Below, piece by piece: positions 2,791-22,400 of a stretch of DNA of 30,000 bases. Position 1 is the first letter of the stretch. Each line of letters opens with the position of its first letter. Below the pieces are notes generated by a model. That model had not been told where the DNA came from, searched no databases, and saw nothing but the letters and a program-made list of their open reading frames with translations. The stretch covers positions 259,976 through 289,975 of the forward strand of contig NC_010334.1 in the NCBI RefSeq assembly GCF_000019185.1. The letters are read 5' to 3'. The position numbers and the translations under genes were made by a program. This DNA is from Shewanella halifaxensis HAW-EB4 (GTDB lineage: Bacteria; Pseudomonadota; Gammaproteobacteria; Enterobacterales; Shewanellaceae).

Positions 2791-2822
2791 TCGCCTCTTG
2801 TCTCTACTAGGATAAGAGGCGA
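2791..2822 (-). other. Intercistronic stem-loop between fixB and fixC (9-bp arms TCGCCTCTT/AAGAGGCGA, 14-nt loop)
   Basis: Inverted repeat read directly from the 82-nt fixB-fixC spacer. No T-run, so more likely an mRNA processing or stability element than a terminator. Confidence 0.35.
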
Positions 2823-2851
2823 TTGAAAGAACAATAAAAATTGTGCTTTGA

Positions 2852-3796: not shown

Positions 3797-3806
3797 TTAT
3801 CCTTAA

Positions 3807-4580
3807 TTAGTTAAGTGCGTTACGTAAGTGTTCTGCGAATTGGGCGATCTGCTGCTCGTCATCACCTTCGATAACGATCTTCTGACGTGCTTTTTGCTCA
3901 GGCGCGATAACTGAAACTAGCTCAACCAGTGCAGGGAACTCTGTTAGCTCGAGCTCTGTCGCGCTTAAGCTGGTGACAGGCTTTTTCGCGGCGGCGAGAA
4001 TGGTTTTCATCGATGGAATGCTTGGCTCGTTAATGTCTGCAGAAACGGAGATAACAGCCGGTAGAGTAATTTCTAGGACTTCTACTTCATTGTCTAACGC
4101 TCTTTCTACGGTAAGTTTTCCAGGTTCTGCTGAGATGATCTTGCTTACAGCATTGATATTCGCAACACCGAGTAGCTCACCTAACTGTAAGCCAACTTGC
4201 TGAGCGTAAAGGTCGCCAGAACCGTCACCACAGATAATTAGGTCGAAACCACTTTTTTGAGCCGCCGCCATTAATACTCTGGCAGTCTGGTGTGGTAGCA
4301 GTTGTTCAAATTTTTCATCAATAACGACGGTTAAGTCATCTGGTCCACGGGAAAGAATATCTTTGCGTGCTTTAGGGTTTTCTAGTGCTTTGCCGCCAAC
4401 ACTCATTGCAGTAATGCTGCATCCTTCGATTAAGCTTTTTAGTTGAACACCCGCTTCAACAGCACAGAGATCGAATGGGTTAATTTTAGGTGCGGCCTTG
4501 TTAGTATCTAAGCTACCATCGGCAGCTACTGTGATATCTTGCTCTTCAGGCACTAATTTGTAACACGTAATAATTTTCAT
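3807..4580 (-). CDS. fixA: Electron transfer flavoprotein beta subunit FixA
   Basis: 257 aa. The N-terminus [16 protein letters not shown] is nearly identical to E. coli FixA ([16 protein letters not shown]). Collinear throughout. Confidence 0.93.
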
Positions 4581-5317: not shown

Positions 5318-5564
5318 GTATAGCCAAATGTTGGCTGGCATGATTCTTACGCAAATCAGCGGATCGAAAATAATTAAATTTATTGTTTGGTGGCTGGCCT
5401 GGCTATTAAATGGTTCGACATATTATTTAATAATAAGTTTGTTTTTTAGTTATATAAGTTTGATGGTATTCGTTTGGCTAAAAACGAATAAAGTTGGTTC
5501 GATAGCTACTCAGTTTAAAACTTTAACTATTATCCTCCTAAAACAGAGAGGGAGAAGTATTGAT

Positions 5565-7154
5565 ATGAACGATAAAACGATGGATGTAAATGCCACAGAA
5601 GTAAAAAAGAAGAAGGTTACTATTGACCCGACTATCTTTTTTCCTTCATTGCTTGCCGTCATATTACTGTCTTATTTGACAGTAAGAGACTTGGATGCCG
5701 CTAATTTAGCTATCAGCGAAGTCTTCCACTATCTAACTCACTCTTGGGGGTGGCTTTTTGAGTGGTACATGATCTTCATGGGAGCCGGTTGGGCTTGGTT
5801 GACCTGGGGACCTTATTCTAATAATCGCTTAGGTCAGGAAAAACCAGAATTTAGTACAGCTAGCTGGATCTTCCTGATGTTTGCCTCTTGTACCTCGGCT
5901 GCAGTGCTGTTCTGGGGGTCTTTAGAGGTTTACTACTATGTTACCTATCCTCCTTTTGATATTGAGCCTTTGTCTATTCAAGCCAAAGAGCTAGGACTCG
6001 CATATAGTCTATTCCATTGGGGACCTTTACCTTGGATGGGATATGGCTTCTTTACTGTTGCTTTGGGTTACTTCCTGTTTGTAAAGAAAATGGATGTGGT
6101 TCGCCCGAGTGGCACCTTAGAGCCTATTTTGGGTAAGCACCATAAAGGCTTTATCGGTACCTTTATCGATAACGTCTACGTTGTTGCTTTAATCCTTGCT
6201 ATGGGTACCAGTCTTGGCTTGGCCACACCTTTGGTAACTGAATGTATTCAATGGTTATTTGGTATCCCACGCACCCCAGCAGTTGACACAATCGTTATCT
6301 CTTCATGGATTGTTTTCAACGCAATTTGTGTGGCCTTTGGTCTGACTAAAGGCATTAAGATCGCCAGTGATTTGAGAAGTTATTTAAGTATCATCATGCT
6401 TGTTTGGGTATTTCTTATTGGCGCAACCAGTTTCACTGTGAACTATTTCACTGACTCAGTGGGCATCATGTTAGAACTACTTCCTCGTATGTTGTTCAAC
6501 ACCGCTTCGGTCAGTGAAGGCAGCTTCCCGCAAGACTGGACCGTATTCTACTGGGCTTGGTGGGTCGTGTATGGCATCCAGATGTGTATCTTCTTAGCGA
6601 AGATCTCTCGTGGGCGTACCGTTCGTGAGCTTTGTCTGACTATGGTTGCTGGTTTAACTGCTTCAACTTGGTTCCTCTGGACCATCCTTGGCAGTAACAC
6701 TATGAATTTGATGAATGAAAACCTCATCAACATGCCGCAACTTATCGAACAGTATGGTGCCGCCAGGGCCATTATTGAAACCTGGGCCGCATTACCGTTC
6801 AGCACTATCACCATGTGGGGCTTCTTCATTCTATGTTTCCTCGCAACGGTCACCTTAGTTAATGCCTGTTCTTACACCCTAGCCATGTCGACCTGTAAAG
6901 GCGCCGATGCTGATAACGAGCCACCAATCTGGGTTCGTGTTGGTTGGTCTGTACTTGTGGGTGTTATCGGCATCGTTCTGTTGTCACTCGGCGGCTTGAA
7001 GCCACTGCAAACAGCAATCATTGCCGGTGGCGCACCACTAATCATAGTTAACGTTATGATTATATTCTCTTTCTTAAAAGATGCCCGTAAAAATAATTGG
7101 AAACCTGTCGGTGAAGAGGCTAAGCCACACCTAGGTTCCACAGCTAAAATTTAG
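5565..7154 (+). CDS. caiT: L-carnitine/gamma-butyrobetaine antiporter CaiT (BCCT family)
   Basis: Collinear with E. coli CaiT (504 aa) from ...TVRDLDAAN... to ...IIAGGAPL.... Start chosen at ATG 5565 (MNDKTMDV) behind an AGAGAGGGAGA Shine-Dalgarno. The ORF-track start at 5328 adds 79 residues with no counterpart in CaiT. Confidence 0.93.
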
Positions 7155-7165: not shown

Positions 7166-8302
7166 ATGGATTTTAAATTAACCGACGAACAAGAGTTATT
7201 TGTAGCAGGTATCCGTGACCTGATGGCTAAAGAGAACTGGGAAAGCTATTTCGCAGAATGTGATGAGAATAGTCAGTATCCAGAGCGCTTCGTTAAAGAG
7301 CTAGCCGAGATGGGTATCGACAGCTTGTTGTTGCCAGAGGAGCACGGCGGATTCAACGAAGGCATGGTAACGCTAGCGGTGATCTGGGAAGAGTTAGGTC
7401 GCTTAGGTGCGCCAACTTACGTGCTATATCAGTTGCCAGGTATCACTACCATGCTAAGACACGGTAGCCCTGAGCAGATCGATAAGATCATGACGCTACG
7501 TGGTACGGGTAAGCAGATGTGGAACTCAGCTATCACTGAGCCAAGTGCGGGTTCTGACGTGGGTAGCCTACTAACCACTTATAAGCGTCGTGATGGCAAG
7601 GTGTATTTAACTGGTAGTAAGTGCTTCATCACTAGTGCTGCAGGTGCTCCTTACATCGTGGTTATGGCTAAAGATGCTGACTCAGAAAAGCCAATCTTCA
7701 CCGAGTGGTTCGTCGATATGTCTAAGCCAGGTATCAAGCTAAGCAAGCTACCAAAGCTAGGCTTAAGAATGGATAGCTGTTGTGAGCTACAGTTTGACGA
7801 GTTTGAGCTAGAAGAGTCAGACATGTTTGGTATCGAAGGCAATGGCTTCATGCGTGTTAAAGAGGAGTTTGACTCTGAGCGCTTCCTTGTGGCCCTAACT
7901 AACTACGGCGCGGCTTACTGTGCATTCGAAGATGCGGCTAAGTACGCCAACCAACGTGTTCAGTTCGGTGAGGCTATTGGTCGTTACCAGTTGATCCAAG
8001 AGAAGTTTGCCCACATGGCTATCAAGCTTAACAGCATGAAGAACATGGTCTATGAGGCGGCGTGGAAGTGTGACAACGGCACTATGACATCGGGCGATTC
8101 GGCAATGTGTAAGTTCTACTGCGCCAATGCCGGCTTCGAAGTTATCGACTCTGCTATGCAAGTACTAGGTGGTTACGCGATTGCTGGTGAGCACCGTATC
8201 AGCCGTATGTGGCGTGATATTCGTGTTGACCGTGTCTCAGGTGGTTCTGATGAAATGCAGATCTTAACCTTAGGCCGTGAAGTACTGAAGCGCTATCGTT
8301 AA
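7166..8302 (+). CDS. caiA: Crotonobetainyl-CoA reductase/dehydrogenase CaiA (acyl-CoA dehydrogenase family)
   Basis: 378 aa versus 380 aa in E. coli CaiA. Acyl-CoA dehydrogenase fold sequence. Sits in the canonical position after caiT. Confidence 0.92.
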
Positions 8303-8556: not shown

Positions 8557-9792
8557 ATGGGTATCATGTCAAATAAATTGTCCACACCTACGTTCGGTCC
8601 TCTTGCTGGTTTGAGAGTGGTTTTTTCCGGAATTGAAATCGCGGGCCCATTCGCAGCGCAAATGCTAGCCGAGTGGGGCGCTGAAGTGATCTGGATTGAA
8701 AACGTAGCCTATGCGGATACTATCCGTGTACAGCCAAACTACCCAGAGCTATCACGCCGTAACCTGCATGCATTGTCGTTAAATATTTTTAAAGATGAAG
8801 GCCGCGATGCATTCCTGAAATTGATGGAAACAACAGATATCTTTATTGAAGCCAGTAAAGGTCCTGCGTTTGCACGTCGTGGTATTACCGATGAAGTGTT
8901 ATGGGAACAAAATAAAAAGTTAGTTATCGCACACTTATCTGGTTTCGGCCAGTACGGCACGGATGAGTATACTAATCTGCCAGCCTACAACACGATTGCT
9001 CAGGCATTTAGTGGCTACCTTATTCAAAATGGTGATGTTGACCAGCCAATGCCTGCCTTCCCTTACACGGCAGACTATTTCTCTGGTATGACAGCAACCA
9101 CCTCGGCACTTGCGGCGCTATACCGTGTACGCGAAACCGGTGTCGGCGAAAGTATCGACATCGCCATGTACGAAGTCATGCTGCGCATGGGTCAGTACTT
9201 CATGATGGATCATTTCAATGGCGGCGAAGTTTGCCCACGTATGACCAAGGGTAAAGACCCTTACTACGCAGGTTGTGGCCTATATAAGTGTGAAGATGGC
9301 TATATCGTGATGGAGCTTGTTGGCGGCAACCAGATTAAAGAGATGTTCAAGGATATGAATATCATGCACCTATATGGTGGCGAAGAGGTACCTGAAGGCA
9401 CTCAATTGATCCACCGTATTGAATGTCCATTCGGCTATCAAGTTGAAGATGCATTAGACGGATACCTAGCGCAAAAGAGCATCGAAGAAGTATTGGCACG
9501 ATTTGCAGAGCTCAATGTGGCGTGTGCAAAGGTATTAACGATCCCTGAGCTTGATAGCAACCCACAATACATTGCTCGTGAGTCTATTACCGAGTGGCAG
9601 AACATCGACGGTAAGACCTACAGAGGCCCTAACGTCATGCCTAAGTTCAAGAACAATCCTGGCCAAATTTGGCGTGGTATGCCAAAGCACGGTATGGATA
9701 CTGCTGCAATCTTGGAAGATATCGGCTACTCACAAGAGCAAATTCAGAGCTTAAGCGAAAAAGGCTTAGCAAAAGTATCTGAGTGTAAGTGA
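8557..9792 (+). CDS. caiB: L-carnitine CoA-transferase CaiB (family III CoA-transferase)
   Basis: Very high similarity to E. coli CaiB ([21 protein letters not shown]..., [14 protein letters not shown]...). The true start may be ATG 8566 (MSNKL), which has better spacing from the AAGAGAG Shine-Dalgarno. Confidence 0.93.
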
Positions 9793-9802: not shown

Positions 9803-11356
9803 ATGGATATCGTTGGTAGCAAAACATTAAGATGCATGTGGGAAGAGCGTGCTCGCAAATTCAGTAATAACACAGCGTTGGTTTATGAGGATGCTGCTGG
9901 CGATGTCCAAGAATATACTTATAGTCATCTGAATGCCGAAATAAATAGAGCGGCAAATTTATTCCTTAGCTTAGGAATTAATAAAGGCGATAAAGTGGCT
10001 GTACAGTTATATAACAGTCCACAATTTATTTTCTGCTGGTTTGGATTGGCTAAGATAGGCGCGGTAATCGTGCCTATTAATAACCAATACCTGTTTGCAG
10101 AGTGCCAATACATTATTAATAAGTGTGCCGTTAAAGCTGTTGTTATTGAGGAAGAGTTCCTACCCATCTATACACGCATGAAACAAGAGACGGGTAACTC
10201 AATAAATAATATTCTGGTTACAAGAACGGCCAATCCTGAAATATCGGACTCGATGAACTTCGATACTTTGCTGAGTCAGCAAATCGTTGAATTGGTTCAG
10301 CGCGTGACGATTAGTAGTGACGATGTGGCCGAAATCTTATTTACCTCGGGTACGACATCACGGCCTAAAGGCGTGGAGATCACCCACTGTAACTTGCAGT
10401 TCGCAGGTTATTTTACGGCGTGGCAAACCTGTCTTCGTAGCGATGATATTTATTTGACTATGATGCCAAGCTTTCACATCGATTTTCAATGTAATGCAGC
10501 CATGGCCGCATTTACCGTCGGTGCAAAGCTTGTGATGCTTGAGAAGTACAGTGCCCGCAAGTTCTGGAAACAGATCTGTGACTATAGAGCCACGATTACC
10601 CATAGCATGCCGATGATCGTGCGTACCTTGATGTTACAGCCTGCAACGCCATTTGAACGTGATCATTGCCTGCGTGATATGTTGTTTTTCCTACATATTT
10701 CAGACCAAGAAAAACTGGACTTTGAAACACGTTTTAATGTGCAGCTGTTTAACTCCTATGGCATGACAGAAACCTTAGTCGGACTGATTGGTGATAGTCC
10801 AGCCGAGGAGCGTCACTGGCCGTCAATTGGACGACCAGGGTTAGGTTATGAGGCCAAGATCGCCGATGAGAATGGTCAAGAGCTTGCCCCTAACGTGATT
10901 GGTGATCTCTGGGTTAAAGGTGTGCCCGGTAGAACGATCATGAAGGGCTACTACCAAGATACGAAAGCCACTGAAGAAGTACTCAGTGCCGAGGGTTGGC
11001 TCTACACTGGCGATAAAGCTTACGTAGATGACAATGGCTTATTTTATTTTGTCGATAGAAAGACAAATATGATTAAGCGCTCCGGTGAGAACATCTCCAG
11101 TAGTGAAATAGAAAAAGTTTTAATGTCTCATCCTTATATTCAAGATGCCGCCGTTATTGGTGTTCCAGATTTAATTCGAGATGAAGCCGTTAAAGCATTT
11201 GTCATATTTAATGAGGGTGTGTCTTTAAGTGTCGAACAAATTTTACAGTATTGCGCTGAAAATATGGCGAAGTTTAAAGTTCCATCTTTTGTTGAAATAA
11301 AAAAGTCTTTCCCAAGAACCTGTACCTGCAAAGTACAAAAAAAACTTCTTATGTGA
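9803..11356 (+). CDS. caiC: Crotonobetaine/carnitine-CoA ligase CaiC (adenylate-forming family)
   Basis: 517 aa, the same length as E. coli CaiC. AMP-binding motif ILFTSGTTSRPKG, and MAKFKVPSFVEIKK near the C-terminus. Confidence 0.92.
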   Translation: MDIVGSKTLRCMWEERARKFSNNTALVYEDAAGDVQEYTYSHLNAEINRAANLFLSLGINKGDKVAVQLYNSPQFIFCWFGLAKIGAVIVPINNQYLFAECQYIINKCAVKAVVIEEEFLPIYTRMKQETGNSINNILVTRTANPEISDSMNFDTLLSQQIVELVQRVTISSDDVAEILFTSGTTSRPKGVEITHCNLQFAGYFTAWQTCLRSDDIYLTMMPSFHIDFQCNAAMAAFTVGAKLVMLEKYSARKFWKQICDYRATITHSMPMIVRTLMLQPATPFERDHCLRDMLFFLHISDQEKLDFETRFNVQLFNSYGMTETLVGLIGDSPAEERHWPSIGRPGLGYEAKIADENGQELAPNVIGDLWVKGVPGRTIMKGYYQDTKATEEVLSAEGWLYTGDKAYVDDNGLFYFVDRKTNMIKRSGENISSSEIEKVLMSHPYIQDAAVIGVPDLIRDEAVKAFVIFNEGVSLSVEQILQYCAENMAKFKVPSFVEIKKSFPRTCTCKVQKKLLM

Positions 11357-11418
11357 AGTTAACTTAATTTAGCTTTTTAATAAAAGAGTCTGAAGTGGCT
11401 CTATATTGGAGTATTAGC

Positions 11419-12204
11419 ATGAGTGAATCATTACACGTTACCCGCAATGGCGCTATTTTAGAAATTACTCTTGATAGACCTAAAGCCAACGCGATTGACG
11501 CAAAAACAAGTTTTGAGATGGGTGAGGTCTTCCTCGCTTTCCGTGAAGATCCTGAACTGCGTGTGGCGATTATTACTGGTGCAGGCGAGCGCTTCTTCTC
11601 TGCAGGTTGGGATCTAAAAGCCGCTGCAGAGGGTGAAGCACCTGATGCTGACTTTGGTCCAGGCGGATTTGCGGGTTTAACTGAAATTTTTGACTTAGAT
11701 AAGCCGGTTATCGCTGCGGTAAACGGTTATGCATTCGGTGGTGGTTTTGAGCTAGCGCTTGCGGCCGATATGATTATCTGCTCTGAAAATGCCAGCTTTG
11801 CCCTGCCAGAAGCTAAATTGGGTATCGTACCTGATAGTGGCGGAATGTTGCGTCTACCTAAGTTATTACCACCTGCGATCGTCAACGAACTGATGATGAC
11901 AGGCCGTGGTATGGGCGCCGAAGAAGCCCTACGTTGGGGCGTGGTGAATCGCGTGGTTGAGAGTGACAAGCTGATGGACAGTGCTCGTGAACTGGCTCAG
12001 CAAATTGCTCAAGGTGCGCCATTAGCTATCGCGGCGATCAAAGAGATCTATCGTGAAACTAGCGAGCTATCGGTGGAAGAGGGTTATCGCCATATTCGTG
12101 CTGGTGGTTTGAAAAATTACCCATCGGTACTGCGTTCTGAAGATGCATTAGAAGGTCCATTAGCCTTCTCAGAGAAGCGTGACCCTGTGTGGAAGGGTAG
12201 ATAG
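11419..12204 (+). CDS. caiD: Carnitinyl-CoA dehydratase CaiD (crotonase family)
   Basis: 261 aa from ATG 11419 ([27 protein letters not shown]), almost identical to the E. coli CaiD N-terminus, with GGAG 7 nt upstream. The ORF-track start (GTG 11395) is probably too early. Confidence 0.93.
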
Positions 12205-12231
12205 GTTTCAGTGCTATCAATCGAAATAGAG

Positions 12232-12266
12232 CCTGATATTTCCCATGAGATATCGGGTTTTATTTT
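12232..12266 (+). terminator. Rho-independent-type terminator/attenuator after caiD
   Basis: Stem 12232..12242 / 12247..12257 (about 11 bp including two G-U pairs, loop CCAT), followed directly by TTTTATTTT. Confidence 0.55.
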
Positions 12267-12297: not shown

Positions 12298-13149
12298 ATG
12301 GCGTTGAAATTAGAGATGCAAGGGCAAACCTACGGCCCATTCGTTAATGAGTATACCGCTAGAGATGTGATGCTGTTCGCGCTGGGTTGTGGTGCTGGCA
12401 GTGACGGTAAAACTGATCTCGATTATGTGTATGAGAAGCAATTAAAGGTACTGCCTATCTTTGCTGCGACGCAAATTGTCGATGCAGAGGTGACTAAGAC
12501 TATCGATTATGGCTTTAATTGGGGCGGATCTTTGCATTGGGGTTTTGACCTGCATATTCATCAGCCACTGCCTACTAATCCTGGCAAATTGAGCACCAAG
12601 GTGTTGTTGAAGGGGCTGTTCGACCGAGGGGAAGGACGCGGTTGTTTGGCGCAACACATAGGTGAAACCTTCGATGAGACGGGGACTAAACTGTTTACTA
12701 ACGAGAGTTGGGATTGCGCGTTATACGATGGCGGCTTTGGCGGCCCAAAAGCGCCAGCAGATATTGTTGAGATCCCAGAGCGCGCGCCAGATTTCGAAAT
12801 TGAACAAGATATTCCACTAAACCAAGCGCTTATCTACCGACTATCGGGCGATGACCATCCTCAGCATGTGGATTGGGAATATGCGCAAGAGTTTGGTCAC
12901 CCAAAACCGAATCTGCACGGTGTTAGCACTGCAGGTGTGGCCTGTCGTCACATCATTCAGGCGATGTTTCCCGGTGAACCGGAGCGATTAACACGCTTTA
13001 AGACTCGGCTAACTAAATCCTTGTATCCCGGCGCAAGGGTCAAAACCCAAATTTGGAAGTGGGATGATAACTGTGTCCATTTCAGAGTGATGGATGCCAA
13101 CGATCCTGACACTTTTTATCTTAACTTTGGTTTAGTTGAGTGGAAGTAA
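12298..13149 (+). CDS. MaoC-like double hot-dog protein, hydratase-2 ((R)-specific enoyl-CoA hydratase) family
   Basis: 283 aa. The N-terminal YTARDVMLFALGCGAG and the C-terminal YRLSGDDHPQHVD...PNLHG resemble the hydratase-2 domain of MFE-2 (YRLSGDxNPLH motif; the Asp and His are retained, the Asn is replaced by His). GGAAGGA Shine-Dalgarno. Confidence 0.8.
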   Translation: MALKLEMQGQTYGPFVNEYTARDVMLFALGCGAGSDGKTDLDYVYEKQLKVLPIFAATQIVDAEVTKTIDYGFNWGGSLHWGFDLHIHQPLPTNPGKLSTKVLLKGLFDRGEGRGCLAQHIGETFDETGTKLFTNESWDCALYDGGFGGPKAPADIVEIPERAPDFEIEQDIPLNQALIYRLSGDDHPQHVDWEYAQEFGHPKPNLHGVSTAGVACRHIIQAMFPGEPERLTRFKTRLTKSLYPGARVKTQIWKWDDNCVHFRVMDANDPDTFYLNFGLVEWK

Positions 13150-13288
13150 GCCTTTGTAGGAGGCTTTAGCCTCCTATCTAGACGAGAAATAGCATTTATC
13201 AACGTTAGTATTTAGCTGTGACGTCTTAATGTTTGAGGCGCAACAGCTAAGTAGTGAGTCGTGTGATTTATTAAGAGTAAAACAATTT

Positions 13289-13897
13289 ATGCCCTGCTAT
13301 GAATTTGAAGGATTAATTCCTGTTGTCGACCCGAGTGCTTATGTGCACCCAACAGCTGTGCTGATAGGAGATGTCATTGTCGAGGCTGGGGTGTATATCG
13401 GCCCCAATGCTTCACTGCGTGGTGATTATGGACGTTTGATTTTGCAGAGAGGTAGTAATTTGCAAGATGGTTGCATCATGCATGGATACTGCGATATGGA
13501 TACAGTTGTTGAGCCTGATGGTCATATCGGCCACGGTGCCATTTTGCATGGCTGCGTAATAAAGCGTAATGCCCTCGTTGGAATGAATGCGGTGGTGATG
13601 GATGGGGCTGTGATTGGTGAAGATAGCATCGTCGCTGCCATGAGTTTTGTTAAAGCGGGTTTTCAAGGCCTGCCGCAACAGCTGTTGATGGGGCAGCCTG
13701 CAAAAGTGATGCGCCAGGTGAGCGAACAAGATCTGCATTGGAAAGGGCTTAATACGCTGGAGTACCAAGTATTAGCCCAGCGCTCGGCGAAAACAATGCA
13801 GCCTGTTACGCCGTTAACTCAGCAGGAAGTTAACAGGCCCAGATTAAAAGGGGTGACCGAGGTGCAGCCCAAGGCGCAGCAAACACAAGCCGGTTAA
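13289..13897 (+). CDS. caiE: Carnitine operon protein CaiE (left-handed beta-helix / gamma-carbonic-anhydrase-like)
   Basis: From ATG 13289 it reads [31 protein letters not shown], against E. coli Cai[32 protein letters not shown]. Collinear to the C-terminal NRPRLKG. The ORF-track start at 13229 adds 20 unmatched residues. Confidence 0.9.
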
Positions 13898-14070: not shown

Positions 14071-15009
14071 ATGCCGTTAGATCCAAAAGTCGCACTGTAT
14101 TTGCAACAAGTGCGTGATTCTGGCGCACAAGCCTATGAAGACATGACCCCCGCAGAGTCTAGACGCCTCGATATGAATGAGCTGACGAAGACGAAAGCCG
14201 ATCGAGTGTTAGAGCCCGTGGCCGCGATAGAGCATAGCTTTATTCCTGGACCCACTGCAGATCTGCCCATTCGGATCTACCGTCCTAAAGGTGACACGAG
14301 TGAGTTACAGCCGGCGATTATCTTTATTCATGGCAGCGGTTGGGTGGTATCGAACATAGAGACCAATGACCATTTTAGCCGTGCCCTCGCTAATCGCACC
14401 GGATCGGTAGTGATCGCGATTAATTATCAAAAGGCACCTGAGCACAAGTTTCCCATCCCAATGGATGACTGCTATGCATCGACATTGTGGATCTTTGAGC
14501 ATGCGACTTTGCTGGGATTAGACTCGAACCGTATCGGCATCTTAGGTGACAGTGCCGGTGGTAATTTAGCAGCGGCGGTGACGCTAAGGCTGCGTGACGA
14601 ACAGGGGCCAAAATTGGCTTACCAAGTACTCGTTTATCCAGCGGTGCAATATGGTTGGCAAACGCCATCGGCTATCGCTCATGCAGAAGGTTATCTATTG
14701 CAACAGGCCAGTATGAAGTATTACTGGGGCCACTACCTGCGTAGCGAAGCCGACGCACAAAATCCCTATTGTTCACCGCTGAATGCCCTGAGCCACAAAG
14801 ATCTGCCGCCAACACTTATCTATACCGCAGAGTTTGATCCATTATGCGATGACGGCTATCTCTATGCCCGAGAATTACAAGGCAGTGGTGTTACAGTCAA
14901 ATACCGCTGTTTTGACGGCGTGATCCATGGGTTTATTAAGATGCTTGGGGTGTTTGATCAGGCCGATGAGTTTCTAGATGAACTTAAGCAAGATCTGTTA
15001 GAGATCTAG
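14071..15009 (+). CDS. Alpha/beta hydrolase, hormone-sensitive-lipase (fold-3) family carboxylesterase
   Basis: 312 aa. Oxyanion-hole motif HGSGW (a variant of HGGG) and nucleophile elbow GDSAGG, with a C-terminal DxL...HGF arrangement typical of the family. AAGGAA Shine-Dalgarno. Confidence 0.85.
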   Translation: MPLDPKVALYLQQVRDSGAQAYEDMTPAESRRLDMNELTKTKADRVLEPVAAIEHSFIPGPTADLPIRIYRPKGDTSELQPAIIFIHGSGWVVSNIETNDHFSRALANRTGSVVIAINYQKAPEHKFPIPMDDCYASTLWIFEHATLLGLDSNRIGILGDSAGGNLAAAVTLRLRDEQGPKLAYQVLVYPAVQYGWQTPSAIAHAEGYLLQQASMKYYWGHYLRSEADAQNPYCSPLNALSHKDLPPTLIYTAEFDPLCDDGYLYARELQGSGVTVKYRCFDGVIHGFIKMLGVFDQADEFLDELKQDLLEI

Positions 15010-15198: not shown

Positions 15199-16089
15199 AT
15201 GAATAATAACATCCCATTAAGGGCGTTACAGGTTTTTGAATCATGCGCAAGGCTGGAAAGCTGCTCGCTTGCTGCGAATGAGTTATGCATCACTCAGAGC
15301 GCGGTCTCTCAACAGATAAAGCTGCTTGAAGATTACTTCTTAGAAAAGCTATTTCACCGCAATGCGGGCAAAATTACTCTGACTGAATCAGGGCTTGAAC
15401 TTAGGCAAAGATTAGCGCCGGTTTTTTATGATTTAAACAGTGTGTGTGCCAGTTTGGTGCCCGATATGTCTAACGAAGTTCGAGTACATTCTTATAACTC
15501 TTTAGCCGCCCGTTGGTTAGTACCTAAGATGGCTAAGCTGAGAAAAGAGCACCCTGAGTTCAACATCAATGTTGGTATGTTTCAAGATGATGTAGAGATG
15601 AGCGATATGATCGCCGATATCTTTATTATCACCCGCGAATGCCAAGACGGCTATACCATTACTCCGTTAGTCGAAGAGAAGCTGGTGGCTTTTTGTAGCC
15701 CTGAATATTTGCAAAAACACCCAGAGATCTCCTTAAGTACTTTCCATGAGCAGACACTACTTTACTCAAAACACAAAGATTATGGTGTCGATTGGGAAGG
15801 CTGGTTTAGAGATAACAAAGTCGCTGTCGGCCCATTACAGCGAAAAATTATTTTCAACCATAATATGTTGGCAGTTCAGGCAGCAATTTTTGGTCAGGGG
15901 ATCGTGCTAGGCCTAGAGCAAACGCTACAAGTAGAATTAGACTCAGGAAACCTGGTGAAGTTAGATCTCCCCCATTGCTATACAGGCTGGACCTACTCAA
16001 TCGCTTATAAGTCTTCAAGAAAGCGGGACGCCCGTATAACCAAGATTGTCGATTGGATAATTAAAGAATATGCGGGCAGCGTATCTTAG
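15199..16089 (+). CDS. LysR-family transcriptional regulator (GcvA/AmpR-like)
   Basis: 296 aa. N-terminal wHTH LRALQVFESCARLESCSLAANELCITQSAVSQQIKLLE, followed by a LysR substrate-binding domain. Confidence 0.88.
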   Translation: MNNNIPLRALQVFESCARLESCSLAANELCITQSAVSQQIKLLEDYFLEKLFHRNAGKITLTESGLELRQRLAPVFYDLNSVCASLVPDMSNEVRVHSYNSLAARWLVPKMAKLRKEHPEFNINVGMFQDDVEMSDMIADIFIITRECQDGYTITPLVEEKLVAFCSPEYLQKHPEISLSTFHEQTLLYSKHKDYGVDWEGWFRDNKVAVGPLQRKIIFNHNMLAVQAAIFGQGIVLGLEQTLQVELDSGNLVKLDLPHCYTGWTYSIAYKSSRKRDARITKIVDWIIKEYAGSVS

Positions 16090-16268: not shown

Positions 16269-16904
16269 TTACTTCTTAAGCGGAAGAAGCTTCTTCAGTG
16301 AGCGAACCCAACCAAAGGTCAACGGCGCCAAACAGACCATAAATACGGTATAAGCGATTATGCAGTAATGTGCCATATTCATGCCCAGTAGAGTCCAATC
16401 GTCTTCACCACAGCCGCCCGTTGGAGCAAACTCAAATGGTAGCCACTCATCAAGTGGTAGGTTGAGTGGGAAGCGTGGATCGGTTGAACAAGCTGAGCCA
16501 GCAGCATCGCCTGCAGCAGCAAAGAAGTCCATCGTCTCATCGACTACCATGTGCGCCGCATCATGGATCTTCATTAACTCAACAGACCACATCCAGCCCT
16601 GAATGACTGCGTACCACGCCAGTAATAAACCTAAGAACTTGAGTATGTGATTTCTCGGATCGATCAGAATGATCAGACCCGCAAGCACGATACAGCACTG
16701 GCTAAAGCGAATGTAAACACATAGCTCACAGGGATCCATCGCCAAGAACAGTTGGAAATAGAAGATGGCCGACAGAATAAGAAATAGTGCTCCTCCAACC
16801 ATCACTAACCAGATGGGCCGATGGTCTTGCATATGGGTTAAGCTGTCGGCAGGGGTGGCCTTAAACTGCCCCCAGAACTCTTTCAATCGTTGCTGCAATG
16901 ACAT
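16269..16904 (-). CDS. dsbI: DsbB-family disulfide oxidoreductase DsbI (membrane partner of DsbL), copy 1
   Basis: 211 aa with four predicted TM stretches. First periplasmic loop CELC (CxxC) and a second loop Cys pair (GSAC...GGCGEDDW), as in DsbB. Sits in the assT-dsbL-dsbI order known from uropathogenic E. coli. Confidence 0.85.
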   Translation of the reverse strand: MSLQQRLKEFWGQFKATPADSLTHMQDHRPIWLVMVGGALFLILSAIFYFQLFLAMDPCELCVYIRFSQCCIVLAGLIILIDPRNHILKFLGLLLAWYAVIQGWMWSVELMKIHDAAHMVVDETMDFFAAAGDAAGSACSTDPRFPLNLPLDEWLPFEFAPTGGCGEDDWTLLGMNMAHYCIIAYTVFMVCLAPLTFGWVRSLKKLLPLKK

Positions 16905-16913
16905 AATAATCCC

Positions 16914-17525
16914 TTACTTAGCAGACAGTTCAGCGATAAGCTCTTTGAGCATATCCATCGAACGGATTGATTTGGTGTTGATCAGGTATTTACCGTTAAC
17001 GGTAATCGCAGGCACACCTTGGATCTTTGCAACTTCAACCCCTTTATCCCATTTGGTCATTAGCTGTTTTACTTTTGGATCTTGAGCATGAGTATCAAAC
17101 TCGGCGCGGCTCATGCCTAATGTATCGAGGGTAAATGCAATGGTAGAATCGGCATCTTTAAATTTGACCTTCTTGACGTGGTACTGGTCGTAGTACTTGT
17201 CCTTTAATTGCTTGAATGTCTTCTCGCCTTTGATCTCTTTAGCGATGGCCAATGCCGTTGATTTCTCTACGCCAAAAGGTGGTTTACTGGTGATATGGTA
17301 CTGATCCAAAGTGCTGCCAGCAGGCATTAACTTATCGTTAGGAATACCTGCTTTTTCATACTTGTAGCAGAAAGGACAGTTAATCGAGTAGATCTTCACT
17401 ACTTGGTTCGGGGCATTAAATTGAGCCACTTCTGGCAATACTTGGTATTCAACTCCCTCTGTTGCTGCATGGGCACCAAATGATAGAAATAGAGTTGCTG
17501 CGATGGCGGAAAGTGTTTTTTTCAT
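16914..17525 (-). CDS. dsbL: Periplasmic thiol:disulfide oxidoreductase DsbL (DsbA paralogue), copy 1
   Basis: 203 aa. Signal peptide MKKTLSAIAATLFLSFGAHA. Thioredoxin-fold active site CPFC, the motif I recall for DsbL (DsbA has CPHC). Conserved cis-Pro region GVPAITVNGKY. Confidence 0.85.
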   Translation of the reverse strand: MKKTLSAIAATLFLSFGAHAATEGVEYQVLPEVAQFNAPNQVVKIYSINCPFCYKYEKAGIPNDKLMPAGSTLDQYHITSKPPFGVEKSTALAIAKEIKGEKTFKQLKDKYYDQYHVKKVKFKDADSTIAFTLDTLGMSRAEFDTHAQDPKVKQLMTKWDKGVEVAKIQGVPAITVNGKYLINTKSIRSMDMLKELIAELSAK

Positions 17526-17560
17526 GAGTGAGTTCCATTAAAAATAGGGTTAACAGCTGT

Positions 17561-17582
17561 CAGCGCCTTTTAAAAGGCGCTG
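17561..17582 (-). other. Perfect 22-bp palindrome CAGCGCCTTTT/AAAAGGCGCTG between assT1 and dsbL1
   Basis: Read directly, starting 11 nt after the assT1 stop. No immediate T-run on the minus strand, so likely an intercistronic attenuator or stabiliser. It lies just outside the duplicated segment. Confidence 0.5.
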
Positions 17583-17593
17583 CCATTGGTTTA

Positions 17594-19354
17594 TTACTGG
17601 TTAAACATGGCTTCTGGGTGAACTACTGTTGAGCGGTAACCCGGCTCGTGTTTAGTCAGGGTTTTAACCTTGATTTCAACTTTTACTTCATTGGTTTTTG
17701 GATCAACCTCTGTAATCCAATGCTCCGGAGCCTTATCACTTTCTAGCAGACCTGCTGAAGCTGATGCCATAAACATGGTGTTATGATCTGGCTGGAATTC
17801 AGTAATAGAGGTAATTGGGCTGTACCACTCATAGCCGCGGTCTTTACCGTATTCCCAGGTCTGTTGAACCGTCATATTGTCCATATCGACCTTGTATTCA
17901 ACACCACGAGAGTACTTCATTGTCGGTAGAGCTGGCTGCTCAAGAGAGCGTCCATCGCCATTGTCGAAGACTGTAACTGTGCCACGTTCAGGTACAGGCC
18001 AAGCGGTATGCTGAGTCCATGTCCAGTCAAAGTCACCTTCACAATCTTTGGCATCACACTTTAACTTTTTGCCCTTTTTATCAACCGGGATGAGTACCTT
18101 ATCTGCTAGATCTCCTTCCCAGCCGATAGGGGTACCAAGGATCCACTTCACTTCATCGTCACGGCCAATCTTAATCACTGCTGATTGATGACGAGAACTG
18201 ATGATGATGCTGTCGTCTTCTGCGTCATAACCAATAGAGTTGATATGTAACCAGTTGCGACCTGTATCTACACCGGCAACGTCGCCATAAGGCTCATTTG
18301 CTAGCTCTTCTGCTGACATTGTCTTACCCGCAGAGGCTACATCTACGTTTAGACACACTGCGCCCATATCCAATGAACTCAATACATCATCACGTAATGG
18401 ATCTAGGATCTTATTGAAGTCCCATACCTTAACGACTTCGCCATTGTTATTAACTTCAATTACATGGTCACGAATAGAGTCAACTTTTATCCCTGTTGGA
18501 GTGATATAGTCTTTTTTGCCCACACGTAGCAACAGGTTGCCGTTTGGCATTTCAGTCACTTCATGAGAGAAACCGATATAGCCGCGAGGAAGATCACGTT
18601 TGAAAATTGGTTTGCCGATAAAGTCGTACTTGGCATAGTAAGGTGACAGGAAGCCATTATGTTGATTAAACATCAGGCCCTGACCGAAGATAAGCTTACC
18701 GTCACGGGTTTGTTTAAATGACATGGACCCGCCTGGACGGTCATAAATTACATCGGCACTTAAGTGCCAGCGTACATCACCGTTGGTATCAATAATATTC
18801 TGGGTTGGTTTCCAATCCCACTTATCACGCAGATCGGGTGTGATGACTTGGCCATCGACTAGATAAAATCTATCTTCAAACCCCTTAGCAACTTTAATCG
18901 GTTCATATTCATACTGAGTTCTATCCTGACCATCAATATGTTGATGTGGTATATCATTGGTACGGATCTTATATGTCTCTTTAATTTTTTTACCATCAAG
19001 CTTGTAGGAGACTTCAACTTCATTAAGGTGGTCAGGGTAGAGACCAAACACCGGAATCCCGTTATGTGTATTCAACTGAGTAGTACTGACGGGATAATCA
19101 ATATCAATGCCTTTACGGTCTTTACCTTTGACGGAAACCGTGGCGTTTGTAATCGTTTTACCTCCCAAATCAATCACTGCAACCAATGGACTAAAGTCAT
19201 AAGGGTCAACGTAGACAAAGCCTAATTGTCCTTGAGCAACAGCGGAAGATGAAGTACCTGGTAAATTTCCCGCAGCATTTACTGATAATGAAATTGCCGA
19301 GCAAGTAAGCACCGAGGCTGTTAAAATCGCTGACATTATTTTATTAAGTTTCAT
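17594..19354 (-). CDS. assT: Periplasmic arylsulfate sulfotransferase (ASST), paralogue 1
   Basis: 586 aa with a Sec signal peptide (...SLSVNAA). Conserved blocks GRNWLHINSI, TQHTAW, DNGDGR and QQTWEYGKDRGY are shared with paralogue 2 and fit the about 600-aa beta-propeller ASST of E. coli. Followed by dsbL-dsbI. Confidence 0.85.
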   Translation of the reverse strand: MKLNKIMSAILTASVLTCSAISLSVNAAGNLPGTSSSAVAQGQLGFVYVDPYDFSPLVAVIDLGGKTITNATVSVKGKDRKGIDIDYPVSTTQLNTHNGIPVFGLYPDHLNEVEVSYKLDGKKIKETYKIRTNDIPHQHIDGQDRTQYEYEPIKVAKGFEDRFYLVDGQVITPDLRDKWDWKPTQNIIDTNGDVRWHLSADVIYDRPGGSMSFKQTRDGKLIFGQGLMFNQHNGFLSPYYAKYDFIGKPIFKRDLPRGYIGFSHEVTEMPNGNLLLRVGKKDYITPTGIKVDSIRDHVIEVNNNGEVVKVWDFNKILDPLRDDVLSSLDMGAVCLNVDVASAGKTMSAEELANEPYGDVAGVDTGRNWLHINSIGYDAEDDSIIISSRHQSAVIKIGRDDEVKWILGTPIGWEGDLADKVLIPVDKKGKKLKCDAKDCEGDFDWTWTQHTAWPVPERGTVTVFDNGDGRSLEQPALPTMKYSRGVEYKVDMDNMTVQQTWEYGKDRGYEWYSPITSITEFQPDHNTMFMASASAGLLESDKAPEHWITEVDPKTNEVKVEIKVKTLTKHEPGYRSTVVHPEAMFNQ

Positions 19355-19368
19355 AGTTAATCCCTTTA

Positions 19369-20115
19369 TTAGAATTTATATTGGACTGAGTAAAAAAATG
19401 CATCGTGATAGCCTTTTTTACCTAAGTTATTTTCTGCGTAACGATAACTGACACCCACTGACCAATTATTGTTGATTATCCAGTTTGCTCGTAGTTGACC
19501 ATTAAAACCAAAGTCTTCCATGTCGCCTGCTAATTCCAAATATTGTTCATTTCTGCCGAAATAAAACTCTTGCCACCAGACAAATTTAAAATCTTGATCA
19601 AATAATGATAAATCATGACTAATATTTAAATACGCGTAGCCACCATTAAAACCTTGCTCATCAAAATTAGAGTCAAAAGCCTTATATGTGGCATTCACTA
19701 TGTGTGCGGCGAACGCTAGCTGTACATAAGTATTGTCATAGTTTTTATCCCAGCTAAATCCAAGCAATGTATTGGTTTCTCCCCAGACAGGCATTGATTT
19801 ATCAAACACTTGGCCGTATAAGTTGAAATCCGTTTCGCCAATATTTATTTGACCGACTAGATTTATTTCAGTCCCATAAATGTCTGTATTATCGAAGTTT
19901 TCCAATGTGACATGACCATAGATATCGCCAAGTGCAGTGCCATGTGCACCTATCATTTTGATGTATGGATTATTATTTTTTGACTCACCAAAGTAGTCAG
20001 ATGCGCTACTTCTCCAATCCATCAAGCCCGTCTCAACGGCTAACATTGCTGCATTCGAAGAAAAGGAAATACTGAGAGCTAACGCAGCTATTCCTGATTG
20101 TAATTTCTTATTCAT
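19369..20115 (-). CDS. Small outer-membrane beta-barrel channel, Tsx/OmpK-like, paralogue 1
   Basis: 248 aa with signal peptide ...SFSSNAA. Alternating aromatic/hydrophilic beta-strand pattern and a C-terminal ...YSVQYKF ending in Phe, typical of OMPs. The Tsx/OmpK family call rests on general resemblance only. Confidence 0.7.
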   Translation of the reverse strand: MNKKLQSGIAALALSISFSSNAAMLAVETGLMDWRSSASDYFGESKNNNPYIKMIGAHGTALGDIYGHVTLENFDNTDIYGTEINLVGQINIGETDFNLYGQVFDKSMPVWGETNTLLGFSWDKNYDNTYVQLAFAAHIVNATYKAFDSNFDEQGFNGGYAYLNISHDLSLFDQDFKFVWWQEFYFGRNEQYLELAGDMEDFGFNGQLRANWIINNNWSVGVSYRYAENNLGKKGYHDAFFYSVQYKF

Positions 20116-20279
20116 AACTCACCTCTATTGAAAGTGATTGCGATGTTATGAATTGAAGCGCGATGATAACTAGAGGAGGCTCACAAAAAAAAATTAGAAT
20201 ATCTTTATATTATTTAAACCTTGATTGTAGGCATGAAAAATAAAAAATTATTTTTTTTAGAGATGGGATTCACAAAAAA
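20116..20279. promoter_or_regulatory. Divergent omp1-assT1 / tetR intergenic region
   Basis: 164-nt AT-rich spacer between divergent start codons. This is the expected location of the TetR operator and both promoters. No individual site is assigned. Confidence 0.5.
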
Positions 20280-20945
20280 ATGGAAAGCAAGACTTTAGAA
20301 CATATTTTAAATGTGTCAGAACAGCTAATTTATAAAGATGGTGTGATCGGGTTTAAGTTTTGCACTGTAGCAAAAGAAGCTGGAATCTCTACAACTAGCT
20401 TATATAAGTTCTTTGGAAATAAAGAAGATATATTGGTTGCTTTGGCAAGTAAAAGTTTTATGAACACCAAAAATAAAAAGTGGTGGTTAAATTTAGAAGG
20501 TGATGCGCTAATAAAAGTCATTGCTTATTATATTTTACAGTTAGATGTCGCTCATGATTTTCCCTTTTACTCATCTATGTCAACGCTAACAAGTAATCAG
20601 CTTATTTGCGGTCGTTCTGCTCACCCTCATATCAGCGCATTGAATAAGAATGCCTATGGTTTTTGGCAAACACCTATTGCGCTATTGCAGCAGGCTAGAG
20701 GGCAGGGGAGTTGTCAACTCTGTGACCAAGCGATTACTAGACTGTGTGCACTGATCTCTATGATTATCAGAGGTCAGGAAGTTGTATCTTGTGCTGAGGT
20801 AGGTAGAGCTTGCAGTGCAGAAGCGAATCTCACAACCCAATGGATTATTGAATTTTGTTTTAAGCAAGTGGGCTTCGAATACCATTTAATTAATCATTGT
20901 ATCCAACAAGCAGATATCCTAATCACAGAGCATGGTCTTCGGTAA
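20280..20945 (+). CDS. TetR/AcrR-family transcriptional regulator
   Basis: 221 aa. N-terminal HTH FKFCTVAKEAGISTTSLYKFFGNKEDIL is typical of TetR repressors. Divergent from the omp1-assT1 operon. Confidence 0.85.
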   Translation: MESKTLEHILNVSEQLIYKDGVIGFKFCTVAKEAGISTTSLYKFFGNKEDILVALASKSFMNTKNKKWWLNLEGDALIKVIAYYILQLDVAHDFPFYSSMSTLTSNQLICGRSAHPHISALNKNAYGFWQTPIALLQQARGQGSCQLCDQAITRLCALISMIIRGQEVVSCAEVGRACSAEANLTTQWIIEFCFKQVGFEYHLINHCIQQADILITEHGLR

Positions 20946-21089
20946 CGGAACTGCTCATAAAATGCCATATGTGTTTGAAGTATGACTCAATGCAGGGAAA
21001 GTAAAGTTATGCCGTTATCCCAGTTATCAGCGGCGACGGTTATGGGTAACAGATCAGTTAAATTATCGATGTTTTGGTCACTGTTAACT

Positions 21090-21120
21090 GTGGCCACTAA
21101 AGTTAGTGGCCACAGTTTTT
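21090..21120. terminator. Palindromic hairpin GTGGCCACT-AAAGTT-AGTGGCCAC plus T-run (copy 2)
   Basis: Identical to 16215..16245. Lies between the convergent tetR (+) and dsbI copy 2 (-). Confidence 0.55.
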
Positions 21121-21143
21121 AATAACGCATGGTTGATTAGTCA

Positions 21144-21779
21144 TTACTTCTTAAGCGGAAGAAGCTTCTTCAGTGAGCGAACCCAACCAAAGGTCAACGG
21201 CGCCAAACAGACCATAAATACGGTATAAGCGATTATGCAGTAATGTGCCATATTCATGCCCAGTAGAGTCCAATCGTCTTCACCACAGCCGCCCGTTGGA
21301 GCAAACTCAAATGGTAGCCATTCATCAAGTGGTAGGTTGAGTGGGAAGCGTGGATCGGTTGAACAAGCTGAGCCAGCAGCATCGCCTGCAGCAGCAAAGA
21401 AGTCCATCGTCTCATCGACTACCATATGCGCCGCATCATGGATCTTCATTAACTCAACAGACCACATCCAGCCCTGAATGACTGCGTACCACGCCAGTAA
21501 TAAACCTAAGAACTTGAGTATGTGATTTCTCGGATCGATCAGAATGATCAGACCCGCAAGCACGATACAGCACTGGCTAAAGCGAATGTAAACACATAGC
21601 TCACAGGGATCCATCGCCAAGAACAGTTGGAAATAGAAGATGGCCGACAAAATAAGAAATAGTGCTCCTCCAACCATCACTAACCAGATGGGTCGATGGT
21701 CTTGCATATGGGTTAAGCTGTCGGCAGGGGTGGCCTTAAACTGCCTCCAGAACTCTTTCAATCGTTGCTGCAATGACAT
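21144..21779 (-). CDS. dsbI: DsbB-family oxidoreductase DsbI, copy 2
   Basis: 211 aa. Differs from copy 1 by one residue (G12R). Confidence 0.85.
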   Translation of the reverse strand: MSLQQRLKEFWRQFKATPADSLTHMQDHRPIWLVMVGGALFLILSAIFYFQLFLAMDPCELCVYIRFSQCCIVLAGLIILIDPRNHILKFLGLLLAWYAVIQGWMWSVELMKIHDAAHMVVDETMDFFAAAGDAAGSACSTDPRFPLNLPLDEWLPFEFAPTGGCGEDDWTLLGMNMAHYCIIAYTVFMVCLAPLTFGWVRSLKKLLPLKK

Positions 21780-21788
21780 AATAATCCC

Positions 21789-22400
21789 CTATTTAGCAGA
21801 CAGTTCAGCGATAAGCTCTTTGAGCATATCCATCGAACGGATTGATTTGGTGTTGATCAGGTATTTGCCGTTAACGGTAATCGCAGGCACACCTTGGATC
21901 TTTGCAACTTCAACCCCTTTATCCCATTTGGTCATTAGCTGTTTTACTTTTGGATTTTGAGCATGAGTATCAAACTCGGCACGGCTCATGCCTAATGTAT
22001 CGAGGGTAAATGCAATGGTAGAATCGGCATCTTTAAATTTGACCTTCTTGACGTGGTACTGGTCGTAGTACTTGTCCTTTAATTGCTTGAATGTCTTCTC
22101 GCCTTTGATCTCTTTAGCGATGGCCAATGCCGTTGATTTCTCTACGCCAAAAGGTGGTTTACTGGTGATATGGTACTGATCCAAAGTGCTGCCAGCAGGC
22201 ATTAACTTATCGTTAGGAATACCTGCTTTTTCATACTTGTAGCAGAAAGGACAGTTAATCGAGTAGATCTTCACTACTTGGTTTGGGGCGTTAAATTGAG
22301 CCACTTCCGGTAATACTTGGTACTCAACTCCCTCTGTTGCTGCATGGGCACCAAATGATAGAAATAGAGTTGCTGCGATGGCGGTAAGTGTTTTTTTCAT
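21789..22400 (-). CDS. dsbL: Periplasmic oxidoreductase DsbL, copy 2
   Basis: 203 aa. Differs from copy 1 by two residues (S6T, and D to N in THAQ[D/N]PKVK). CPFC active site retained. Confidence 0.85.
   Translation of the reverse strand: MKKTLTAIAATLFLSFGAHAATEGVEYQVLPEVAQFNAPNQVVKIYSINCPFCYKYEKAGIPNDKLMPAGSTLDQYHITSKPPFGVEKSTALAIAKEIKGEKTFKQLKDKYYDQYHVKKVKFKDADSTIAFTLDTLGMSRAEFDTHAQNPKVKQLMTKWDKGVEVAKIQGVPAITVNGKYLINTKSIRSMDMLKELIAELSAK

Follow-up and report, generated by a model that had tools for sequence, protein, structure and literature searches.

A hot-dog-fold hydratase beside CaiD in the cai operon of Shewanella halifaxensis: a proposed second carnitinyl-CoA dehydratase

What does a second hydratase contribute to a carnitine operon that already has one? 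The question is raised by a 30,000-nucleotide (nt) stretch of Shewanella halifaxensis HAW-EB4 DNA (NC_010334.1, positions 259,976 to 289,975; here called the window, with positions counted from its first letter), in which a gene of the hydratase-2 or MaoC type lies between caiD and caiE of a cai operon. An earlier note, made from the sequence, described it as inserted into an otherwise E. coli-like operon and suggested, as an inference, that together with CaiD it would form a two-hydratase epimerase acting on carnitinyl-coenzyme A (CoA). We favor a different reading, to which we give a probability of about 0.6: the protein, MaoC, is a hot-dog-fold carnitinyl-CoA dehydratase, a nonorthologous analogue of CaiD that acts at the same step and on the same L-enantiomer, and the operon is a two-dehydratase form. 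Because crotonase-fold CaiD is also present, the operon would have two unrelated enzymes for nominally the same step. That MaoC acts on some CoA ester of the carnitine pathway seems almost certain from the comparisons described below.

The maoC gene itself is straightforward. Its open reading frame (ORF; 12298 to 13149, forward strand) starts with ATG, has AGGA 7 to 8 nt 5′ of that start, and encodes 283 amino acids; the opposite strand is rich in stops. Tested for the hydratase 2/MaoC dehydratase class (PF22622 and PF01575), the protein matched MFE-2_hydrat-2_N over residues 18 to 137 (48 bits) and MaoC_dehydratas over residues 158 to 257 (57 bits), each against a cut-off of 27. It matched no NCBIfam equivalog, and as for the CaiD class, neither ECH_1 nor NF002936 was hit, the genuine CaiD being the adjoining gene at 11395 to 12204. 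An AlphaFold 2 model (predicted local distance difference test [pLDDT], 75; predicted template modeling [TM] score, 0.79) resembled human MFE-2 hydratase 2 (1s9c) and Mycobacterium tuberculosis 3khp with TM scores of 0.83 to 0.85, and the same two were the solved structures nearest by sequence (E of about 1e-34). Thus, the profile search and structure prediction that the note had suggested both support a two-domain double hot-dog fold, and its placing of a hydratase-2 gene between caiD and caiE holds.

The active site is also recognizable. Residues 180 to 190, YRLSGDDHPQH, align with YRLSGDWNPLH in 1s9c, YRLSGDRNPLH in 3khp, and YRLSGDYNPLH in 7mku, so the catalytic Asp185 and His190 are kept while the usual Asn has become His187, just as the note had read it. 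The N-terminal sequence that it reported, YTARDVMLFALGCGAG, is likewise present, at residues 19 to 34. L206-H207-G208 aligns with the LHG oxyanion turn of the same three structures, a turn kept in the cai-linked family. The protein does not conform to the strict hydratase-2 signature, which we take to be [YF]-x(1,2)-[LVIG]-[STGC]-G-D-x-N-P-[LIV]-H-x(5)-[AS]; it reads Y-R-L-S-G-D-D-H-P-Q-H-VDWEY-A, and the two departures, Asn to His and [LIV] to Gln, recur in every cai-linked member. Our search for literature on the roles of hydratase-2 residues found nothing.

Those departures mark a family. Among the at least 120 homologues listed, identity to MaoC ranged from 49 to 97%; the closest of those listed was from Shewanella fidelis (96%), and homologues 49 to 81% identical came from Ferrimonas, Enterobacillus, Endozoicomonas, Desulfobaculum, Desulfovibrio, Sporomusa, Cellulomonas, Trueperella, Arcanobacterium, Eggerthellaceae, and other genera. 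The window protein thus shares at least about 50% identity with members across phyla together with the motif GDxH[PQ]xH. In 18 diverse homologues, His187 and His190 were invariant and Asp185 nearly so. In a library clustered at 50% identity (1.84 billion representatives), the whole cai-linked family collapsed to one representative, at 400 bits, and the next full-length match beyond it scored 264 bits; in the nearest outsiders, the motif is NPLH, FQLH, LRLH, YPLH, or something similar, with the Asn position varying there too, and HPQH occurs in none. Judged by these comparisons, the cai-linked hot-dog enzymes are a discrete, uncharacterized family. Residues 29 to 50 (about 12382 to 12447), LGCGAGSDGKTDLDYVYEKQLK, are among its best-conserved stretches, with G30, G32, G37, and E46 invariant, and are modeled with pLDDT below 50; this segment may be a lid over the acyl-tail pocket that becomes ordered by substrate.

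How the family is distributed speaks directly to the question. We examined 80 genome loci carrying MaoC homologues 58 to 97% identical to the window's, from six phyla, by tblastn with the Cai and Fix proteins of the window. CaiD stood beside MaoC in just 14, always in the order caiC-caiD-maoC and always in Shewanella or Ferrimonas. In the other 66, which belong to Pseudomonadota, Thermodesulfobacteriota, Campylobacterota, Bacillota, Actinomycetota, and Dormiibacterota, a search reaching up to 10 kb to either side gave no CaiD hit at E<1e-10, whatever the coverage. CaiC was found in 62 of these 66 and ended less than 300 nt before MaoC in 58 of the 62; CaiA and CaiB were present in 54 and FixA in 56, the shortfalls being mostly due to cut contigs. 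Similarly, in another collection, Desulfobaculum, Sporomusa, Enterobacillus, and an Arcanobacterium-type contig have transporter-caiA-caiB-caiC-MaoC-fixABCX contexts with no crotonase gene and mostly no caiE. The survey of cai loci that the note had called for therefore places MaoC after caiC across six phyla, mostly without CaiD, and it does not support the picture of an E. coli-type operon that took in a foreign gene. It is the window that departs from the usual layout, in which MaoC directly follows caiC; here, caiD lies between.

Other arrangements turned up in the same survey. In one Eggerthellaceae contig (L010), the order is caiA-caiB-MaoC-caiC, and about 2.4 kb farther downstream the opposite strand carries a crotonase gene whose product has only 38% identity to CaiD. 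A second MaoC paralogue, 54 to 56% identical to the window protein, occurs in Endozoicomonas (L028 and L030), in Campylobacterales (L049 and L055, in both paired with a second CaiB-like gene), and in Ferrimonas (P0090); in the Ferrimonas copy, the catalytic Asp is replaced by Asn (GNYHPLH). The cluster occurs sporadically within Shewanella: 3 of 37 sampled genomes carried MaoC, and 2 of 29 from a separate draw carried CaiD, each count including the window's genome. One Shewanella locus (L101, genome G378) reads caiD-caiE-esterase with no MaoC between caiD and caiE, so both operon forms occur in the genus; its CaiD and CaiE are 85 and 74% identical to those of the window, as distant as those of E. 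coli. The enterobacterial family sample had CaiD in 32 of 251 genomes, and in none of the 30 Enterobacteriaceae caiD loci fetched was there a MaoC within 1.5 kb of caiD. In E. coli, the caiD-caiE gap is 5 nt and holds no gene, and in 5,409 of 5,426 complete genomes the query matched nothing beyond its caiD and caiE portions.

In the CaiD-less clusters, the partners of MaoC are those of carnitine metabolism. CaiA (693 to 748 bits; cut-off, 540) and CaiB (655 to 712 bits; cut-off, 413) pass as equivalogs, as do CaiT (774 bits; cut-off, 541) and CaiC (897 bits; cut-off, 651) of the Sporomusa cluster, while CaiC of the Arcanobacterium haemolyticum cluster falls slightly under its cut-off (572 against 651 bits). 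If these clusters do what their CaiA, CaiB, and CaiT imply, they must handle natural L-carnitine. No CaiD equivalog turned up at E≤1e-60 in the genomes of Endozoicomonas elysicola and Sporomusa rhizae. Each of five small Actinomycetaceae genomes with a MaoC cluster has a single crotonase-fold gene, which is MenB in all three that were checked (497 to 515 bits; cut-off, 378). In such genomes, this leaves the hot-dog protein as the sole candidate for the hydration/dehydration step.

A phenotype is available for one cluster of this type. In Propionibacterium freudenreichii, a genome-wide association study tied a caiABC-fixABCX cluster to depletion of acylcarnitines from milk and to an increase in carnitine and a putative gamma-butyrobetaine (PMC11007987). 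The cluster comprises a major facilitator superfamily (MFS) transporter, an alpha/beta-hydrolase, caiABC, another MFS gene with an "enoyl-CoA hydratase," and fixABCX, with no caiD and no caiT; the hydrolase and an MFS transporter are the genes statistically tied to acylcarnitine depletion, and in a strain with fixABC split off, carnitine accumulates (PMC11007987). Since the acylcarnitines consumed are natural acyl-L-carnitines, these observations point to L-carnitinyl-CoA as the substrate. Gene context, the lack of other hydratases, and this phenotype together suggest that MaoC works on crotonobetainyl-CoA and L-carnitinyl-CoA, the L-enantiomer being unusual for the fold.

We propose, then, that the cai-linked hot-dog family supplies the dehydratase/hydratase of a second and widespread form of the carnitine-to-gamma-butyrobetaine pathway, one built from a transporter, CaiA, CaiB, CaiC, MaoC, and FixABCX. 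Asp185 and His190 would position and activate water, the thioester would be polarized by the LH(G/A) turn through its backbone NH, and carnitinyl-CoA and crotonobetainyl-CoA would thereby be interconverted; the latter would then be reduced by CaiA and the Fix proteins. Candidates for binding the trimethylammonium group are His187, Gln189, Trp193, and the segment 29 to 50. In most lineages, the hot-dog enzyme would be the sole dehydratase of its cluster.

In the window, the proposed second dehydratase does not simply follow the first. A terminator-like hairpin with a T run, found by consensus scan at 12223 to 12266 (forward strand), begins 19 nt after the caiD stop and ends 32 nt before the maoC start. 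It has 20 pairs followed by TTTTATTTT and folds at -23 kcal/mol (z = -7.1); none of 200 shuffles folded as well. A stem-loop folds after caiD in all 14 two-dehydratase loci, with compensatory changes among close relatives. A further stem-loop, 8 bp, GC rich, and without a T run, can be read immediately 3′ of the maoC stop (13157 to 13176, forward strand) and is kept, with base changes, in close Shewanella relatives. An Rfam search of the intergenic hairpins matched no family. Given the hairpin and the absence of a promoter-like site between it and maoC, maoC-caiE-esterase is probably transcribed by attenuated readthrough, and the hairpin after caiD probably lowers expression of this distal part.

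Might MaoC, then, be a redundant relic, made superfluous by the arrival of CaiD and either on its way to being lost or not expressed? The hairpin ahead of it, and its absence from all 30 Enterobacteriaceae loci, from E. coli, and from the L101 Shewanella locus, would suit that idea. Selection argues otherwise. By the Nei-Gojobori method, the ratio of nonsynonymous to synonymous substitutions (dN/dS) within the two-enzyme clade is 0.013 to 0.04 for maoC and 0.008 to 0.07 for caiD, both in the range of caiA and caiB, with dS near-saturated or saturated (0.2 and above); values for caiE were unreliable in several pairs because of misaligned high-scoring segment pairs and were not used. In the Shewanella/Ferrimonas clade, strong purifying selection acts on both genes, and neither is a relic. 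With the maoC frame intact in 14 of 14 two-enzyme loci, its dN/dS as low as that of caiA, caiB, and caiD (at dS of 0.55 and above for the pairs that were compared), and its catalytic residues invariant, we regard a relic as most improbable.

Retention of both genes would also fit a division of labor, with CaiD handling carnitine and MaoC another CoA ester that enters by the same transferase or ligase, such as another beta-hydroxy or enoyl betaine, or a sulfonium analogue, of marine or animal origin. The hairpin sets maoC-caiE-esterase apart from caiTABCD, some clusters have a second MaoC paralogue with a second CaiB, and the segment 29 to 50, located where hydratase 2 accommodates the acyl tail, is family specific and highly conserved as well as being modeled with low confidence. 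Nonetheless, the partners in MaoC-only clusters are bona fide CaiA, CaiB, and CaiT equivalogs and no other dehydratase is there for carnitine, and in P. freudenreichii it is carnitine and acylcarnitines that the phenotype involves (PMC11007987). No data here identify a candidate for an alternative substrate, and we consider a separate substrate quite unlikely.

The epimerase proposal turns on stereochemistry, and here the argument of the note, that hydratase 2 and CaiD should have opposite preferences, is sound. L-Carnitine is designated (R) under the Cahn-Ingold-Prelog (CIP) rules only because CH2-N+ outranks CH2-CO; spatially, its counterpart is an (S)-3-hydroxyacyl-CoA, which is what CaiD and other crotonases form. 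It follows that a canonical hydratase 2 would yield D-carnitinyl-CoA, which makes the epimerase idea chemically coherent: MaoC would make the D form, CaiD would be specific for the L form, and the pair would epimerize, allowing use or racemization of D-carnitine. The fold and catalytic pair of MaoC are those of the (3R)-specific hydratase 2; strong purifying selection on both genes of one operon speaks against simple redundancy; and 3-hydroxyacyl-CoA epimerization by two opposed hydratases in beta-oxidation is an established precedent. Set against this are the 66 loci where the family occurs without CaiD, some in genomes with no candidate L-specific hydratase at all. Because the family works without CaiD, one half of an epimerase cannot have been its ancestral role. 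D-Carnitine is not known to us from any natural source, and E. coli reportedly racemizes D-carnitine with its Cai enzymes alone, having no MaoC.

If MaoC had taken up a new role beside CaiD, one might look for traces in its sequence. At four sites (V8Q, R17N, A208G, and I238L), the whole two-enzyme clade departs from a residue that at least 90% of MaoC-only sequences share, compared with zero to three such sites in other clades of at least seven sequences; this is no excess and therefore no sign of changed function in the MaoC of the window clade. At the LH(G/A) oxyanion turn, Ala is found in 99% of MaoC-only sequences; one of the four changes, A208G, puts back the Gly that canonical hydratase 2 has there. 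That would suit an enzyme of canonical stereochemistry, although we note it here without giving it weight. On balance, we think it unlikely that the pair functions as an epimerase. A broader form of the idea, in which MaoC has the normal stereochemistry throughout, CaiD and MaoC make up a carnitinyl-CoA epimerase, and the CaiD-less clusters process an enantiomer or substrate yet to be recognized, seems distinctly unlikely as well.

If both enzymes serve one step, it may be asked which came first. In the CaiB tree, CaiD-bearing clusters, two-enzyme and enterobacterial, form one clade (Shimodaira-Hasegawa-like approximate likelihood ratio test [SH-aLRT], 100) opposite the MaoC-only clusters. In the MaoC tree, rooted on the second paralogue from the Endozoicomonas and Campylobacterales clusters, the two-enzyme MaoCs also form one clade (SH-aLRT, 99), nested among MaoC-only sequences and sister to a MaoC-only Enterobacillus cluster whose divergent fix/cai layout is that of E. 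coli. The MaoC-type cluster, found in six phyla rather than one order, is favored as the older form for that reason. These patterns would fit a MaoC-type ancestor, a gain of caiD between caiC and maoC, and a later loss of maoC in Enterobacteriaceae; on that order of events, caiD and not maoC is the newcomer. The two-enzyme operon would then stand between the MaoC-type operon and that of E. coli type, as an intermediate or a hybrid. As for foreign origin judged by base composition, the GC content of maoC (0.46) is within the range of the neighboring cai genes (0.44 to 0.50) and so gives no such signal.

Several points weigh against a second dehydratase acting on L-carnitinyl-CoA and the history just outlined. 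To our knowledge, all characterized hydratase-2/MaoC hydratases give the (3R)-type configuration, here D-carnitinyl-CoA, so that action on the L-enantiomer would require an altered binding mode. A truly isofunctional pair would be expected to lose one member, yet both are tightly conserved. The strong hairpin with its T run precedes maoC, and cotranscription is something we infer. An approximately unbiased (AU) test does not reject a tree with the MaoC-only sequences monophyletic and separate from the window clade (p = 0.28), and the CaiD tree with a distant outgroup is poorly resolved; for these reasons, and because the CaiA and CaiC trees are mosaic, we do not claim the direction of events as shown. 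A full-text literature search gave no paper linking MaoC to crotonobetainyl-CoA, the cai pathway, or caiD in a carnitine context, and the one Shewanella paper found lists only caiABCDE. Finally, the P. freudenreichii "enoyl-CoA hydratase" is tied to the family by a gene order like that of actinobacterial loci and by name only, NCBI naming several family members "...enoyl-CoA hydratase"; neither a repeated search for homologues nor a look-up of clusters gave a record named P. freudenreichii. In that study, moreover, gamma-butyrobetaine was only putatively identified (PMC11007987).

The rest of the locus is largely, but not entirely, what E. coli would lead one to expect. Divergent from the cai genes is an electron-transfer flavoprotein system, fixXCBA (1187 to 4580, reverse strand), made up of fixX (1187 to 1474), fixC (1471 to 2769), and fixB (2852 to 3796), all three by ORF call, and fixA (3807 to 4580; NF002888, 437 bits); by tblastn, these are 54 to 65% identical to E. 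coli fixABCX in an identical layout. On the forward strand follow caiT, for the L-carnitine/gamma-butyrobetaine antiporter (5328 to 7154; NF002887, 903 bits against a cut-off of 541); caiA, for crotonobetainyl-CoA dehydrogenase/reductase (7166 to 8302; NF002885, 762 against 540); caiB, for L-carnitine CoA-transferase (8557 to 9792; NF002914, 751 against 413); caiC, for crotonobetaine/carnitine-CoA ligase (9803 to 11356; NF005947, 980 against 651); and caiD, for the crotonase-fold crotonobetainyl-CoA hydratase (11395 to 12204, with a probable start at 11419; NF002936, 548 against 500), whose product aligns with E. coli CaiD across 261 amino acids at 85% identity and without a gap. After maoC comes caiE, for a hexapeptide-repeat protein (13229 to 13897; NF010150, 393 against 305); the match begins at residue 21, and the ATG near 13289 is the probable true start. 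The caiT ORF carries about 90 additional N-terminal codons (5328 to 5600) with no counterpart in the CaiT family. Similarity to that family sets in only at residue 92, which puts the probable true start near 5601 and would leave a fixA-caiT spacer of about 1 kb.

Beyond caiE, the likeness to E. coli that the note had described ends, although it holds for CaiT through CaiE, all passing their cut-offs, and for the divergent fixABCX. No gene was seen in the caiF position adjoining caiE in the window. Instead, there is an alpha/beta-hydrolase of the hormone-sensitive lipase (HSL) family (14071 to 15009, forward strand; HGSGW and GDSAGG motifs; Abhydrolase_3, 231 bits; LipP1 family, 354 bits against a cut-off of 350), followed 3′ by a LysR-type regulator with HTH_1 and LysR_substrate domains (15199 to 16089, forward strand), which is syntenic in close Shewanella loci. 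Esterases 28 to 38% identical to the HSL protein occur in 37 of the 66 MaoC-only loci, mostly heading actinobacterial clusters, and the window esterase is a candidate acylcarnitine esterase/hydrolase that would feed the pathway. Farther on, at 16269 to 25719 and unrelated to the cai locus, the window contains two arylsulfotransferase (ASST) genes, each with a DsbA/DsbB-like (DsbL/DsbI-type) gene pair and a small outer-membrane barrel gene; the Dsb-like pairs of the two modules have nearly identical Pfam scores, and a TetR gene lies between the modules.

Besides being a form of anaerobic respiration, the conversion of carnitine to gamma-butyrobetaine is the first step of a gut-microbial route to trimethylamine (TMA) and its N-oxide (TMAO). 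Gene surveys based on caiTABCDE of E. coli, in which caiD serves as a marker, would miss MaoC-type clusters that are apparently more widespread. Either crotonase-type stereochemistry toward a cationic substrate has been acquired by a hot-dog hydratase, or the function of these clusters is not the one assumed. What is new here is the coexistence in one operon of two conserved dehydratases, as we read them, with unrelated folds, which can be compared directly in one organism; the arrangement is either a preserved intermediate of nonorthologous displacement or a functional pair. With both enzymes side by side in a cultivable and genetically tractable genus, the Shewanella operon is a place where isofunctional, opposed (epimerase), and specialized roles can be told apart.

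Four known systems help to place the window enzyme. With the CaiD of E. coli and Proteus (NF002936) it shares the operon context, after caiC and with caiTAB and fixABCX, and, as proposed, the step; in 66 loci, a hot-dog gene occupies the caiD slot. The folds are unrelated, a crotonase spiral with two Glu residues against a double hot-dog with Asp and His; the stereochemistry expected from the MaoC fold is the opposite, and the window MaoC sits beside an 85%-identical CaiD orthologue rather than replacing it. With the hydratase-2 domain of peroxisomal MFE-2 (human 1s9c and Candida tropicalis 1pn2/1pn4) and with bacterial MaoC proteins (M. tuberculosis 3khp), it has in common the double hot-dog (TM, 0.83 to 0.85), the LHG turn, and catalytic Asp and His five residues apart, but identity is only 24 to 32% and GDxHPQH stands in place of GDxNPLH. 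Whereas the MFE-2 enzymes serve fatty-acid and bile-acid beta-oxidation, the window MaoC is free-standing in a quaternary-amine operon, with a substrate presumed to be short and cationic. The CaiD-less cluster of P. freudenreichii, from the Scoary2 study and the only phenotype link for this cluster type, resembles the window in its alpha/beta-hydrolase (the window having an esterase too), caiABC, "enoyl-CoA hydratase," and fixABCX, but it lacks caiD, caiT, and caiE and has MFS transporters, and its hydratase is likened to MaoC by gene order and naming (PMC11007987). Last, the 3-hydroxyacyl-CoA epimerization of beta-oxidation likewise pairs a crotonase-type with a hydratase-2-type enzyme, and the two are encoded together in the window with possibly one enoyl-CoA between them; here, however, opposite stereospecificity on crotonobetainyl-CoA is hypothetical, and in most genomes the hot-dog enzyme stands alone.

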